Positions 53,068 through 62,278 are shown, numbered from the stretch's first letter. The stretch is 62,806 bases of DNA from an uncultured virus (IMG/VR IMGVR_UViG_3300034272_003223) (IMGVR_UViG_3300034272_003223), one strand, 5' to 3'. The notes: generated by a model from the sequence alone, not told the origin. A program made the numbers and translations.

Positions 53068-53086
53068 ATAAATTATTAAAAGTTAG

Positions 53087-53160
53087 TGGTCCATACAGGA
53101 CTCGAACCTGTGACCTTCTCGTTATGAGCGAGCTGCTCTAACCAACTGAGCTAAAGGACC
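53087..53160 (-). tRNA. tRNA-CAT (probably Ile2, lysidine type)
   Basis: GGTCCTTTAGCTCAGTTGGTTAGAGCA...CTCATAA; the body resembles Ile2. Confidence 0.88.
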
Positions 53161-56991: not shown

Positions 56992-57279
56992 TTATTTTAC
57001 TCTTAAAACTTGTTTAGATTTTTCTTCTATCCATTCAAGCTTTCTATATTTAAAATCTTTCCACTCTTCAAAATCATCTAATATATCGATAACTTCGTGT
57101 GGAACTAGCACAAATCCGTCTGGTGCAATACCTGCAAATTTATAATAGTTTGAATCCTTTAATTTTTCTTTGACTAGTGGATTATCAAATGGCTCGTCAT
57201 ATAAACCAGCTTCTTGATCTAATCTCATCATTTCAGCAAGTATTTTACCTTGCTCTTCTTTAGTAAGATCCTCTGACAT
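56992..57279 (-). CDS. Hypothetical protein
   Basis: 95-aa ORF. Confidence 0.5.
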   Translation of the reverse strand: MSEDLTKEEQGKILAEMMRLDQEAGLYDEPFDNPLVKEKLKDSNYYKFAGIAPDGFVLVPHEVIDILDDFEEWKDFKYRKLEWIEEKSKQVLRVK

Positions 57280-57296
57280 TTAGTTGAGGTTATTTT

Positions 57297-57385
57297 TGGT
57301 ACCGACGGCCGGAGTCGAACCGGCACGGGCATTACGGCCCAAGAGATTTTAAGTCTCTCATGTCTACCTATTTCATCACGTCGGC
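57297..57385 (-). tRNA. tRNA-Leu(TAA)
   Basis: Cloverleaf with variable arm; loop CTTAAAA; encoded CCA. Confidence 0.95.
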
Positions 57386-57466
57386 ATTTAACTAAGTTAT
57401 TATACTAAGTTTATTAACTGGGTTATCAGTCGAAGATAAATATTTATAGAAATAACTCAATTATTA

Positions 57467-58378
57467 ATGGGAAATCACATTAAAAATTTTAAAGGTTGGA
57501 AGAACGTTTCAGAAGCTGGTTCTTGGGGAGAGTGGATGCAATCATTAGTTACTGGCGTAGGAGCAGAGACTCCAGAATTAGGAGCAGATGCAAAGGCTGC
57601 ATTAACCGGCGTAAAGACATTAGCTGGTACTGTTGTAGATAAAATTGCAGATACACTAGGAATAGAAACTGACAAAAAGGAAGAACCAAAATCTTCTAAA
57701 GCTTTTAAATCAAATAGCGGAAAAATTCCAGAAGAACACATTGCCGCATTAGAAGCAGCCATGGATAGACATGGAATTACAAATGAATTTGCAAGAAAGG
57801 CTATTCTTGGAGTAGTATCAAAGGAATCTCCAGATCTAAGACCTGAAGTTGACTATAGTAAAACTTCCAACTCTAGAATTAGAGAAGTATTTGGATCAAG
57901 AGTTTCAGAATTATCAGATTCTCAACTTGATGCATTAAAAGCTAATCCAACTAAGTTTTGGGATAGAGTATATGGACCAACCGATCCAACTGGAAGAGGC
58001 TCAAAATATGGGAATTCTGAACCGGGCGATGGCGAAAGATATAGGGGTCGCGGATTTAATGGAATTACATTTAAAAGTAATTATATCAATCTTCAAAAAG
58101 TATACAATGAAATTGGTAAACTCGAAACTAATGATACAATCGATATAGTTGATAATCCAGAACAGTTGGAAGATCCAGCGATTGCAGCAGAATTTGCAAT
58201 TCTTTATTATATCGATAGTTTTAAACGAGCAAATAAAAACCTAAATAACTTTAGTGATTTAGAATCTGCCGTAACTGATTATGTTAGATCAACTGCGGGT
58301 TGGGGTTCAGATATTACAAGCGGAGTTAAGGCTCAGGGTTTTGCTAGAGCTCTAGACTATGCACAATCATTAGCATAA
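57467..58378 (+). CDS. GH19-like lysozyme/chitinase with N-terminal capsid-targeting-like motif
   Basis: VVSKES, GNSEPGDGERYRGRGFNGITFKSNY, NPEQLEDPAIAA; starts HIKNFKGWKNVSE; GATAAATA at 57435-57442. Confidence 0.8.
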   Translation: MGNHIKNFKGWKNVSEAGSWGEWMQSLVTGVGAETPELGADAKAALTGVKTLAGTVVDKIADTLGIETDKKEEPKSSKAFKSNSGKIPEEHIAALEAAMDRHGITNEFARKAILGVVSKESPDLRPEVDYSKTSNSRIREVFGSRVSELSDSQLDALKANPTKFWDRVYGPTDPTGRGSKYGNSEPGDGERYRGRGFNGITFKSNYINLQKVYNEIGKLETNDTIDIVDNPEQLEDPAIAAEFAILYYIDSFKRANKNLNNFSDLESAVTDYVRSTAGWGSDITSGVKAQGFARALDYAQSLA

Positions 58379-58379
58379 T

Positions 58380-58556
58380 ATGAAGATTAGAGATATTAAA
58401 CCCCAAGATAAAGATATGGTCGACGGAATAGTCGATATTATAAAACAAGTAAGGGACAAAGATAATCGAGAAGAGATTGCAACCAATATGGTTAAGCAAT
58501 TAAAGCGAGAAAAGATTATCTTAAACTACGAAGACTTTTTAAAAGCCTGTAAATAA
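58380..58556 (+). CDS. 58-aa hypothetical protein (not in ORF track)
   Basis: MKIRDIKPQDKDMVDGIVDIIKQVRDKDNREEIATNMVKQLKREKIILNYEDFLKACK, starting 1 nt after the GH19 stop. Confidence 0.55.
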   Translation: MKIRDIKPQDKDMVDGIVDIIKQVRDKDNREEIATNMVKQLKREKIILNYEDFLKACK

Positions 58557-58587
58557 CAAAAGCCTCATTAAGCGGCTTTTTCTTTTT

Positions 58588-58662
<75 letters not shown>

Positions 58663-58707
58663 CTATAATATTTTCAAGATGTGATTGTTGGAAAGTAAAA
58701 AAGAAAA

Positions 58708-59557
58708 ACGCTGAGATTATACGTTTTAACGTTAGATCTTTACATAGGATTATTGTTTCCCTACTTATCCAGAGACTTTTGATCTCTACTCTAACAGTGC
58801 CGGTTTTTTAGGTGTACCACTCCTTGAGCTGCGGGTTTGAACTACTCTCCTCATATTATATCTACCAGAATCTGCCGATCCCGTTAACCCTTGCGAGGCT
58901 ATAGATTTTTCTGAGAACTCGTATTGGACTTGCGATCCTTTACGGCAACTGACAACCAGTTACTAGGTAGGCACCTTTCGTTCGCAGCTGACGAGCGCTT
59001 AAGCTTTGTTTTAAAATGGATTTTAGTTATTCACCAAAAGAACTTTTTATTTCCAAAGTTTATTGACTCTGTGGATTGTGAAAGTAGTGGCTCGTCACTA
59101 GGCCAGCCCCGATTTTGTCAGGGTCGATACTTAACTACTCTCTGAGATATCCCTACCTCAATTTTTCCGGATTCCTCTTAACTGCAGTCTTGGTAGACTG
59201 ATGATAAGGTTAATAACAGCACCACCTGTACATCAACTTGTCTTTCGACTTTAAGGCTCCCATTAAATTGGAGTTCGCAATCATGGAGTCGGATGATTCC
59301 ACTCCTTGCAAATATCCTACGAGTTAATCTTATTGAGGTTCCCCTCTCAACTAAACGACCCACATCGCCTAGTCAGCATTCCAGTTCTCCTACAGTGTTA
59401 CCCTCAGATACTTAGGACTTCTGATATCCCGCTTGCCTACTCGAGTTCCTTGCGAAACCGCAGAGCTGATAAGTCATATAGCTCCACTTTATACCTGTTT
59501 CCAGGTTTATTTGACGATCATAGGCGACCGTTTTGCAACCTAGCAAGCTAGGCTACA
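58708..59557 (-). ncRNA. GOLLD-like giant structured ncRNA (~850 nt)
   Basis: No credible ORF; GC-enriched; many GNRA hairpins and long-range helices; next to a tRNA; GGTATAATA promoter-like site at about 59600. Confidence 0.75.
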
Positions 59558-59648
59558 TATATCAATAAGATTCAAAGAACTTGTTTGTGTTACTTATTTA
59601 TTATACCTACTTTATTTGATTTTGGTTTAAATAAGTAAAAAAAAATTA

Positions 59649-59843
59649 AGGGTTTGAAAAGAGATCCGAAAAAATTTTCGCTAAAAGAGTGTTAAATGTT
59701 GATAGGTGCCATTTTTGAATTTCTTAAATCTTGAATTTTAAATTCAGAGTCCCTGTCTTAACATCAATTGGATTGCTAGAATAAGTATGTAAATGACGTG
59801 CAGTCATATGCTACCGATTCCTCTTCACTCTTTTCTCTCCCCT
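59649..59843 (-). ncRNA. Structured 3' RNA with 7-nt repeats downstream of the DIP1984-like gene
   Basis: AGGG/CCCT and GAAAAGAG/CTCTTTTC closing helices; loop with TTTAAAA-TTCAAGA-TTTAAGA-TTCAAAA. Confidence 0.45.
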
Positions 59844-59848
59844 ATATT

Positions 59849-60277
59849 TTAAATTTTGGTTTTTGCATTGTGAGCTTCTAGCTCCTCTTGCAACATCTCG
59901 ATTTGAGACTCCAATTTTTCAATCAATTGATCTTTTTCAACGATTGAGATTTGTGAAGTGTACTTCACTGGAGAATCCATTCGATATGATTGGTGCATTC
60001 CTTCTTTGCAGTCTAAACCTTTCAATTTAGAAACCAAAGATTTTAGTTCAGCTAATCTAAAGATTTTATCATAAACCTTTGCATTAGCTTTGTGAATAGC
60101 TGTTTTTAATGCAACTAATTCATCAACCGATGTCATTGCTTTTTCCAACGCTTCCTTTGCATCATAAGGACGTGTAGTTCCTTCTTGAATAGAGTTGTAC
60201 GCTGAAACATGCGAAATGTACTCATTAGTTTTTGAAACTAATTTGTTTTTCTGTTTAAGTGCTTTTGTGATATTCAT
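59849..60277 (-). CDS. DIP1984/DUF6847 (septicolysin-like) coiled-coil protein
   Basis: MNITKALKQKNKL...LKTAIHKANA...ELEAHNAKTKI pattern. Confidence 0.6.
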   Translation of the reverse strand: MNITKALKQKNKLVSKTNEYISHVSAYNSIQEGTTRPYDAKEALEKAMTSVDELVALKTAIHKANAKVYDKIFRLAELKSLVSKLKGLDCKEGMHQSYRMDSPVKYTSQISIVEKDQLIEKLESQIEMLQEELEAHNAKTKI

Positions 60278-60332
60278 GTTTTATTGTATTACTTAGTTAA
60301 TAATAGTTTTTAATATACCTAAAAAATTTTTG

Positions 60333-60404
60333 AGCGGATGGAGAGAATCGAACTCTCATCTCCAGTTTGGAAGACTGGAGTAATGGCCATTATACGACAT
60401 CCGC
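60333..60404 (-). tRNA. tRNA-Gly(TCC)
   Basis: Cloverleaf; loop CTTCCAA. Confidence 0.95.
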
Positions 60405-60409
60405 AAATT

Positions 60410-60512
60410 GCTGTCTTTCCAAGCTGTCAACCAGTGCACGTTCCAAACCCTTGTTTGGATGACTGCTTCTATTACTAGAATGCTTTATTTGCAAGTCGTC
60501 GTTGTGTTGGAT
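60410..60512 (-). ncRNA. Structured spacer RNA ending in UGACA-GAAAGA hairpin (copy 1)
   Basis: Hairpins TTCTA-GTAA-TAGAA and TCCAAAC-AAGG-GTTTGGA; 3' TGACAGCTTGGAAAGACAGC. Confidence 0.5.
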
Positions 60513-60519
60513 TTCTGCG

Positions 60520-60625
60520 TAGTCATAATTGGATTCGAACCAATTACAGGCTTTACCATAAAGAGTGCCATTAGCAGTTAATCTCAACCTTGGGGAGGTG
60601 CCCTTCAACCAATGAATTTATGACT
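60520..60625 (-). ncRNA. tRNA-like RNA with expanded multibranched anticodon domain
   Basis: Acceptor AGTCATA/TATGACT, D-like arm TTCA-TTGGT-TGAA, perfect T-arm ATTGG-TTCGAAT-CCAAT. Confidence 0.65.
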
Positions 60626-60630
60626 ATTTG

Positions 60631-60704
60631 CGGTCCGTACGGGACTCGAACCCGTGATCTCCTACGTGACAGGCAGGCGTCCACTCCAACTGGACCGACA
60701 GACC
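60631..60704 (-). tRNA. tRNA-Asp(GTC)
   Basis: Cloverleaf; loop CTGTCAC. Confidence 0.95.
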
Positions 60705-60807
60705 ATTTAGATATTTCAGAAGAGGTTACTAAACTTCAGCTCTTCAAAGCTTCTCAGCTTACAGCGTTCCGTCAATTGTTTACGCTGCTAACTTATTCGG
60801 TAAAGCG

Positions 60808-60879
60808 TAGCCCGTACGAGAATCGAACTCGTCTCTCACCCGTGAAAGGGGCGTGTCCTAACCGATAGACTAACGGGCC
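60808..60879 (-). tRNA. tRNA-Glu(TTC)
   Basis: Cloverleaf; loop CTTTCAC. Confidence 0.93.
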
Positions 60880-60884
60880 AAGGA

Positions 60885-61070
60885 CAAATCTTGCATGCTC
60901 ACCATGCTTGTGGATTTGATTGAACATAGTTTACTGTTCACCTGTTTTGAGTGCACCAAAGAGCAGGGTCCATCACATAATACCTTGGGTCATGTATACT
61001 TCATTGGGTAGCTACTCCCACGAAGCCAAGGTCTCTTTCAACGGTGCTAATCCGTCTTATGTAAGATTTG
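60885..61070 (-). ncRNA. ~186-nt structured RNA, possibly manA-like
   Basis: Terminal helix CAAATCTTACAT/ATGCAAGATTTG; internal ACCTTGG/CCAAGGT; exactly fills the spacer between tRNA-Ala and tRNA-Glu. Confidence 0.55.
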
Positions 61071-62247: not shown

Positions 62248-62278
62248 ACAATTATTATACTAATTTAGTTATACTATG

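Follow-up and report, generated by a model that had tools for sequence, protein, structure and literature searches.

GOLLD RNAs have been known since 2025 to self-assemble into RNA-only nanocages, 12- to 14-mers (PMC12286853, Kretsch et al. 2025), and here we describe a member of this family encoded by an uncultured virus (IMG/VR IMGVR_UViG_3300034272_003223), the analysed 62,806 nucleotides (nt) of which we refer to as the window. Env-38, an 833-nt GOLLD with a 5' region of nucleotides 1-420 and a 3' region of nucleotides 421-833, forms a D7 14-mer cage (PDB 9MEE) in which the 5' domains are the caps, the 3' domains are the ring and a disordered linker faces inward; GOLLD cages remain assembled at concentrations as low as 12.5 nM, and contacts between subunits show conservation or covariation (PMC12286853). 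The first 3'-domain hairpin is followed by a variable, single-stranded linker, termed J13/15 (PMC12286853, PMC12990946). Family members reach 800 nt or more through a many-stemmed 5' domain of about 420 nt that is less conserved than the 3' domain, and their expression is reported to rise in the course of phage lysis. The Streptococcus agalactiae GOLLD, of 700 nt, forms a 12-mer (PDB 9L0R) and lacks helices P9, P11a-c and P21b as well as parts of P7 and P10 (PMC12990946).

The GOLLD block of the window occupies positions 59557-58708 of the minus strand (850 nt, made up of a 5' part of 415 nt and a 3' part of 435 nt) and, taken as a whole, is very probably the complete GOLLD gene of a very large uncultured freshwater phage, located inside a tRNA array. 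Compared by published description, not by direct alignment, it shares with env-38 the Rfam family, the proportions of the two parts (420 + 413 nt in env-38), a variable linker after the first 3'-domain hairpin, both long-range pseudoknots, a conserved GAAA hairpin, two adjacent hairpins with self-complementary loops, an origin in an aquatic metagenome and a tRNA-Met neighbour. It differs in that env-38 is marine and lies downstream of its tRNA-Met, whereas in our lake-water phage the tRNA-Met lies downstream of GOLLD, and in having a linker that is about 10 nt longer. With the Streptococcus agalactiae RNA it has in common the conserved 3' domain; cage formation via kissing loops and minor-groove contacts, described for the Streptococcus RNA (PMC12990946), is for the window RNA a prediction. 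The window RNA is, however, 150 nt longer, with helices at the tentative places of P9, P11a-c and P21b, and since the helices that are missing from the 12-mer form thus appear to be kept, we would expect, by analogy, a larger, env-38-like assembly. Like the GOLLDs of Mycobacterium and Mycolicibacterium it sits inside a tRNA array (Morgado et al. 2020, cited in PMC12990946), but those have cellular or prophage carriers while the window belongs to a huge lytic-type phage, and the Mycolicibacterium linker contains a tRNA-Phe (PMC12990946) whereas ARAGORN finds no tRNA in ours. Finally, ROOL (PMC5737381) is likewise a large, ornate, cage-forming phage or prophage RNA found near tRNAs (8-mer cage); its sequence and fold are unrelated to those of GOLLD, and no ROOL match was found anywhere in the window at gathering thresholds. 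A preliminary description of the locus, made from the sequence alone, gave GOLLD RNAs no known function, which still holds for their biology but is out of date as to nanocage self-assembly (PMC12286853).

Results

Family assignment and extent of the RNA

The Rfam GOLLD model RF02032 matches positions 59142-58708 on the minus strand with 242.8 bits, 93 bits above the cut-off (gathering score 150, E-value 9.6e-68), and the match spans model positions 1-416 of 416, i.e. it is not truncated. This full-length match bears out the assignment made in the preliminary description. The competing families named there, ROOL, introns, RNase P and tmRNA, gave no match in 58400-60000 even at E-values up to 10; apart from GOLLD, this permissive scan returned only tRNA and chance-level small nucleolar RNA matches far below their cut-offs, and these families are thus excluded. 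As RF02032 covers only the conserved 3' half of GOLLD, the 5' half (59557-59143) has no Rfam family match in the same scan. The originally proposed extent of about 850 nt is nevertheless right, because the 5' 415 nt outside the Rfam model are a homologous, covarying domain of the same RNA (see below). The block is a GOLLD RNA, a complete copy and an ordinary family member in a textbook setting (lake phage, tRNA island, about 850 nt), and its surroundings are those typical of GOLLD: phage genes, a tRNA array and a tRNA-Met 45 nt downstream.

All twelve motifs quoted in the preliminary description lie on the minus strand where it had placed them (Table 1), and the GC enrichment it noted is real, with a G+C content of 0.428 in the block as compared to 0.354 in the window and 0.356 and 0.31 in the flanks. 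The 850-nt strand folds at -249.8 kcal/mol versus -219.8 +/- 7.8 kcal/mol for shuffled sequences (z -3.84, from 20 shuffles only). The block can be called free of open reading frames (ORFs) only roughly: mechanical ORFs of 81, 73 and 61 amino acids, starting with TTG or GTG, lie inside it, but the longest open frames in 29 homologues (50-117 amino acids) differ in strand, frame and place, and no coding frame is therefore conserved.

The 5' half is the usual 5' domain of environmental phage GOLLDs

A blastn search of phage records yielded two uncultured phages of about 630-642 kilobases (kb), LR756502.1 and LR745206.1, which match the 5' half at 67-70% identity and carry a full Rfam GOLLD 3' half directly after it (275 and 287 bits). 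Further relatives were collected by three motif scans of viral contigs and screened with nhmmer profiles. Homologous loci made up 112 of the 120 found with a 3'-domain motif, 26 of 29 found with a gapped motif and 15 of 120 found with a bare 14-mer; hits of this last scan were mostly due to chance, 105 of its loci being without homology. The 5' half proved homologous to the GOLLD 5' halves of about 100 uncultured phage contigs. When loci were gathered by the 3'-domain motif alone and required to have at least 870 nt of upstream DNA, the 5' domain was present in 69 out of 74, and the five exceptions have only weak and partial 3' matches. We conclude that this is the usual 5' domain of environmental phage GOLLDs and no novelty of the window locus.

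To assess covariation we used an alignment, A2, of the window and 28 of the 31 distinct full-length loci (29 sequences; near-duplicates L003, L148 and L130 omitted). Compensatory changes among homologues, the check that the preliminary description had named, are abundant: RNAalifold on the whole block gives 188 pairs, 141 of which show them. The 5' structure comprises 106 pairs in 19 helices, with 96.7% of 3073 cells paired, as compared to 37-42% in a slid control in which partners were moved by 1-3 columns; double-sided changes occur at 77 of the 106 pairs, and the observed score was reached by none of 500 shuffles. The hairpins and pairings listed in the preliminary description are kept with compensatory changes in the 29 sequences, with the exception of GCCTC-GCAA-GGGT, which was not called by RNAalifold; it is a modelled hairpin in the Rfam consensus.

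Helices were mapped to published P-numbers from text alone, and any one-to-one correspondence of those of the 5' domain with P1-P13 is tentative. The conserved core of the 5' domain starts near 59532, preceded by a variable 5'-terminal hairpin that marks the 5' boundary given originally. This hairpin appears both in the fold of 59600-59530 (-15.4 kcal/mol, z -1.92) and in that of the whole block; homologues also have a hairpin at this place, but of other sequence, and it is probably P1. The GAAA loop of the GUC-GAAA-GAC hairpin is present in all 29 sequences, in L076 on an inserted stem. L11a of the published GOLLD structure is GAAA (PMC12286853), and the hairpin is a candidate L11a.

Pseudoknots and candidate kissing loops of the 3' domain

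The two-domain build, the variable linker and both long-range pseudoknots are kept by compensatory evolution in related phages. In the first 3'-domain hairpin, alignment columns 597-605/653-661 and 613-621/627-635 covary (RNAalifold); the hairpin corresponds to env-38 422-481, the inner part being P14 (PMC12286853, Supplementary Table 3), and we tentatively equate it with P13/P14. The linker that follows exceeds that of most relatives by about 25-35 nt. It is closed by pseudoknot A, which crosses the first 3'-domain hairpin: across its seven pairs 203 of 203 cells are paired, versus 22-50% when slid, and six of the seven have changed on both sides. The 8-base-pair (bp) long-range pairing of the preliminary description is thus a true pseudoknot, with seven pairs 100% paired and 6/7 covarying. 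Pseudoknot B, found by our own column scan of the alignment, has six pairs with 99.4% of 174 cells paired (21-53% slid), five of them changed on both sides. Both are missing from the Rfam structure line. Since they match pairs that covary in env-38, namely 467-471/555-559 for A and 576-580/743-747 for B (R-scape results, Supplementary Table 3 of PMC12286853), they are known features.

About a dozen further stacks of 4-6 pairs from the column scan were not accepted, being GU-rich, with few pair types and overlapping established helices. Visual inspection also suggested a pairing AUCCA/UGGAU of the linker flank with the region that follows P24; it shows no compensatory change, fails in L034 and was dropped.

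Two adjacent hairpins at 58866..58899 are candidates for L21a and L21b, which carry self-complementary kissing loops. The loop of the first (58899-58887) reads YGCAA in 13 of the 29 sequences and GUCGAA in 16, which is the GC/CG switch reported for L21a and considered evidence for a symmetric inter-subunit kiss (PMC12286853); the loop of the CGGGAUC hairpin always contains GC. At the 3' end, the stem of the terminal hairpin covaries (CG 15/GC 14). The conserved 3'-terminal hairpin with a GUAAUCUCAG loop, a hallmark of GOLLD, is present as GTATAATCTCAGCG, the motif on which the block had been said to end and which matches the Rfam 3' terminus. The fold of the terminal hairpin with its U-run is weak (-3.9 kcal/mol, z -0.83) and no terminator is claimed at this end.

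The block is likely transcribed

DNA and RNA sequencing runs were compared by the share of the queried stretch's sequence words present. Fourteen DNA runs from lakes or fresh water, among them possibly the source, contain 84-99% of these words, and six metatranscriptome runs, from as many studies, contain 58-70%. We then placed the contigs of four freshwater metatranscriptome runs from four studies (X15-X18) on positions 57000-61000. In X16 a single 815-nt contig spans 58711-59523 and shows 2 differences; contigs of X18 map to 58790-59472 (3 differences) and 59443-59558 (0 differences), contigs of X17 to 58759-59212 (0 differences) and 59206-59585, and contigs of X15 to 58688-59012 and 59079-59353. 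There is no cover over 57000-58473 in X16, X17 and X18 (missing cover cannot rank genes), none beyond 59680 in X16 and X17, and in X18 likewise except for one contig on 59847-60019; in X15 the neighbouring gene is covered by nothing but low-depth contigs of 151 nt, depth being no basis for ranking genes either. Contig ends were rejected as transcript ends, because they differ between studies (58688, 58711 and 58759; 59523, 59558 and 59585). Transcription of the GOLLD block is thus likely.

The promoter-like site that had been noted upstream of the block is present as GGTATAATA and belongs to an enriched, strand-biased class of -10-like elements, DGTATAATR. This motif occurs 15 times in the window versus 5.87 +/- 2.44 expected, a count reached by none of 100 shuffles, while TATAAT alone is at chance level (97 versus 97.2 expected). 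The minus strand carries 14 of the 15 sites, typically in intergenic DNA just upstream of genes or tRNAs, with 5' ends at 62261, 61168, 59607, 57406, 53531, 50498, 47246, 45544, 38676, 35129, 34415, 33744, 21162 and 16951; most consist of A/T-rich DNA followed by RGTATAATA. For GOLLD, the site at 59607-59599 would place the transcript start near 59593.

At four of the sites (62261, 50498, 47246 and 33744) an ATG stands exactly 5 nt past the motif, so that the A of the ATG would likely be the transcript start and the mRNAs leaderless. At two sites a tRNA begins 12 nt past the motif.

Phage context and tRNA neighbours

The window encodes a portal protein, DNA polymerase, primase, helicase, RNA ligase, Lon-like protease, thymidylate synthase and endolysins. 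The portal is closest, at 31-39% identity, to those of 460-735-kb uncultured phages and Lak megaphages, and the nearest available record, G001, is a 114-kb fragment rated 44% complete with a same-scoring GOLLD. ARAGORN finds 18 tRNAs and Rfam 20 on the minus strand of the window, and none on the other strand.

An unpaired 1:72 position, A73 and a GGG/CCC anticodon-stem foot mark initiator tRNAs. The tRNA-Met(CAT) downstream of GOLLD, described originally as tRNA-fMet, has initiator-like features in keeping with that description: unpaired U1/U72, A73 and GGG/CCC at the foot of the anticodon stem. No RGTATAATA element precedes it at the spacing seen for tRNA-Ala and tRNA-Leu. A hairpin after the tRNA was considered as a terminator, but at -9.5 kcal/mol (z -0.11) it is no better than shuffles and was not called by the consensus scan.

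To see how general this neighbourhood is, we counted tRNAs around 89 distinct full-length relatives, which fall into 44 clusters at 85% identity; flank lengths vary between loci, and shared ancestry inflates the tRNA-Met counts. A same-strand tRNA is present in the available flanks of 52 loci and absent from those of 37. The nearest one is Met(CAT) in 32 of the 52 loci (20 of 30 clusters), 16 times upstream and 16 times downstream, which suggests that the pairing survived rearrangement. Overall, Met(CAT) accounts for 40 of 115 flanking tRNAs; 32 of these 40 have no Watson-Crick 1:72 pair and 38 have A73. In 16 of the 89 loci the GOLLD 3' end is followed, at a distance of 5-17 nt, by the start of a same-strand tRNA, and in 11 loci a tRNA-Met starts 7-17 nt after the last GOLLD base. 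We tentatively propose, as one possibility, that GOLLD is preferentially joined in a two-gene module with a phage-encoded tRNA-Met of initiator type; the link remains a correlation. Our literature search, outside which Weinberg 2009 and Morgado 2020 fell, found no paper on a GOLLD-initiator tRNA link, the sole remark in the accessible portions of Kretsch et al. being that env-38 lies downstream of a Met-tRNA (PMC12286853). This linkage is the only lead here that goes beyond what is in print.

Several side observations concern these tRNAs. A second CAT-anticodon tRNA (53086-53160, also in L013 and L173) has a normal G1-C72 pair and no GGG/CCC stem, i.e. it is an elongator Met or Ile2-type tRNA, and the phage thus carries both kinds. 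The acceptor end of the GOLLD-adjacent tRNA-Met is U1/U72 in the window and C1/A72 in L003 (record G001), the GOLLD scores being identical. In one clade of huge uncultured phages a tRNA-like gene lies 5-12 nt past the GOLLD 3' end (L001 2333-2406, L137 1648-1722, L126 1638-1714, L134 514-590); ARAGORN reads these genes with 2- or 4-letter 'anticodons' (tt, attc), and the L001 copy is an Rfam tRNA at 52.8 bits. Two related phage contigs, L034 (176-525) and L229 (509-905), have a tmRNA gene no more than a few hundred bases from GOLLD, the order in L034 being tmRNA, GOLLD, tRNA-Met. Elsewhere in the array of the window, a freshwater-1 RNA (RF02979) match lies at 60915-60977 on the minus strand, between tRNA-Ala and tRNA-Glu (72.4 bits, gathering score 72), and the 225-nt gap 60405-60629 on the same strand, from tRNA-Asp to tRNA-Gly, has a G+C content of 0.42-0.49, high for this phage, and no Rfam match at gathering thresholds.

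Table 1. Features of the GOLLD locus and its immediate neighbourhood, in window coordinates
Feature	Position	Strand	Basis or remark
Promoter-like -10 element GGTATAATA	59599..59607	-	sequence check; member of DGTATAATR class
GOLLD 5' domain, 415 nt	59143..59557	-	19 helices including a four-way junction and GAAA/GCAA-capped hairpins
Variable 5'-terminal hairpin UGUAGCCUAG-CUUG-CUAGGUUGCA	59534..59557	-	10 bp
Hairpin motif CCTGGAAACAGG	59505-59494	-	sequence check
Hairpin motif GGTTTCGCAAGGAACT	59459-59444	-	sequence check
Pairing GACTAGGCGAT / GTCGTTTAGTT	59374-59364 / 59359-59349	-	sequence check
Hairpin GUC-GAAA-GAC, motif GTCGAAAGAC	59240..59249	-	sequence check; stem covaries: GC 22/AU 7, UA 21/CG 8
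GOLLD 3' domain, 435 nt	58708..59142	-	Rfam RF02032 part
First 3'-domain hairpin, outer helix GAGAGUAGU/ACUACUUUC, inner helix with CAAAA loop	59080..59142	-	covariation
Pairing GAGAGTAGT / ACTACTTTC	59142-59134 / 59088-59080	-	sequence check
Variable A/U-rich linker (J13/15 in the literature), 83 nt	58997..59079	-	length-variable A2 columns 662-749, poorly aligned
Pairing TGACGAGC / GCTCGTCA	59097-59090 / 58996-58989	-	sequence check
Pseudoknot A, GACGAGC / GCUCGUC	59096-59090 / 58996-58990	-	corresponds to TGACGAGC/GCTCGTCA
Pseudoknot B, GGUGCC / GGCACU	58975-58970 / 58801-58796	-	column scan of alignment
Hairpin GCCUC-GCAA-GGGU, motif GCCTCGCAAGGGT	58899-58887	-	sequence check; modelled in Rfam alignment
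Hairpin CGGGAUC-GGCA-GAUUCUG, adjacent to the preceding	58883-58866	-	modelled in Rfam alignment
3'-end motif GTATAATCTCAGCG	58722-58709	-	0 expected by chance
Terminal hairpin ACGU-AUAAUCUCA-GCGU (P27-like), then U-run UUUUUCUUUUUU	58696..58724	-	Rfam 3' end is GuGUAaUCUCAgcC
tRNA-Met(CAT), initiator-like	58588..58662	-	ARAGORN; Rfam tRNA 67.4 bits; 45 nt downstream of GOLLD
Weak terminator-like hairpin AAAGCCG...GGCUUUU, then GUUAUUU, after tRNA	58550..58580	-	possibility only

Discussion

We propose that the GOLLD RNA of this phage would be transcribed from the phage's own RGTATAATA-type promoter at 59607-59599, and that the transcript may run on into the initiator-like tRNA-Met, with tRNA-processing enzymes trimming its ends; co-transcription of the two is plausible. 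The RNA would fold into two domains, a 5' 'cap' and a 3' 'ring', and, by analogy with env-38 (14-mer) and Streptococcus agalactiae (12-mer), could self-assemble during infection into a hollow RNA-only cage via kissing loops and A-minor contacts. Our preferred guess is that the role of such a cage is tied to the phage's tRNA and translation supply.

A number of observations weigh against parts of this account. The sequences in the alignment are mutually related and the structure was derived from that same alignment, both of which inflate the agreement. For the pseudoknots, the count measures (double-change pairs and further pair types) are not above shuffles, reaching 37/500 and 500/500 for A and 49/500 and 209/500 for B, and support for both therefore rests on percent paired, covariation score and slid controls. 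Transcription is likely rather than proven, because strand, ends and level cannot be read from contigs and the RNA libraries may contain DNA, and one X15 contig with 13 differences, from a relative, extends to 59781, past the proposed start. As for the promoter, the consensus scan did not call the 59607-59599 site, which has a poor -35. Moreover, of the 89 distinct related loci only 3, which are closely akin to the window, have GTATAAT upstream of GOLLD; the motif is specific to this phage lineage, and the RGTATAATA element therefore says nothing about the GOLLD family.

Among other explanations, it is conceivable, though doubtful, that GOLLD mainly serves the tRNA array in processing or storage: it would be co-transcribed with tRNAs, receive its ends from RNase P and RNase Z and retain tRNAs that are adjacent to it or embedded in it, or control when they are released ('inhibited storage'). 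Such a role would sit well with the 16 of 89 loci in which a same-strand tRNA closely follows GOLLD, with the window tRNA-Met having no RGTATAATA element of its own, with the co-transcription proposed in PMC5737381 and with the tRNA-Phe embedded in the Mycolicibacterium linker (cited in PMC12990946). It is harder to reconcile with the 37 of 89 loci that have no same-strand tRNA in their available flanks and with a window linker devoid of tRNA; nor does any contig bridge GOLLD and the tRNA among the X15-X18 contigs listed.

We consider it unlikely that GOLLD works in monomeric or low-oligomeric form, e.g. as a ribozyme or as a scaffold for proteins or ribosomes, the cage being an in-vitro property. 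While the accessible portions of PMC12286853 and PMC12990946 report no in-vivo cage, GOLLD was bound to ribosomes in pull-downs (cited in PMC12286853) and the stoichiometry varies with the construct from 10 to 14 (PMC12990946), cages that persist at 12.5 nM and contacts that are conserved or covary (PMC12286853) argue for assembly, as does the GC/CG switch of the self-complementary loop in our own set (13 versus 16 of 29).

The remaining two explanations have next to no probability. That another large structured RNA (ROOL, a group I/II intron, RNase P RNA, tmRNA or a new class) merely resembles GOLLD could be entertained from the 5' 415 nt, which Rfam does not cover and which alone could pass for an unknown RNA, but is in practice refuted by the full-length GOLLD match 93 bits over the cut-off with no other family at E-values up to 10, by the 5' half accompanying the GOLLD 3' half in 69/74 loci and by sizes that fit env-38. 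Just as improbable is a protein-coding region or a decaying, non-functional remnant: the mechanical ORFs of 61-81 amino acids inside the block have TTG/GTG starts and are unconserved in strand, frame and place among the 29 homologues, substitutions compensate one another within RNA pairs, the whole model is matched without truncation, and near-identical copies occur in the 14 lake or freshwater DNA runs and six RNA runs.

Our preferred reading remains a complete GOLLD gene of a very large freshwater phage, with a predicted cage-forming product. An unaided reading of the sequence had correctly recognised one of the largest RNAs known from the bacterial world, and the result is a well-delimited, apparently expressed GOLLD of a huge lake phage with a candidate promoter. 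For the family, a covariation-supported structure is now given for the 5' half, which is unmodelled in Rfam, together with a 29-sequence full-length alignment, and structural studies of cage stoichiometry gain a readily usable variant from nature. That GOLLD so often neighbours an initiator-like tRNA gives a lead on its function that can be tested at little cost: should the link be functional, the target of the cage may be translation initiation, the cage storing, delivering or sequestering initiator tRNA or small ribosomal subunits during takeover of the host.

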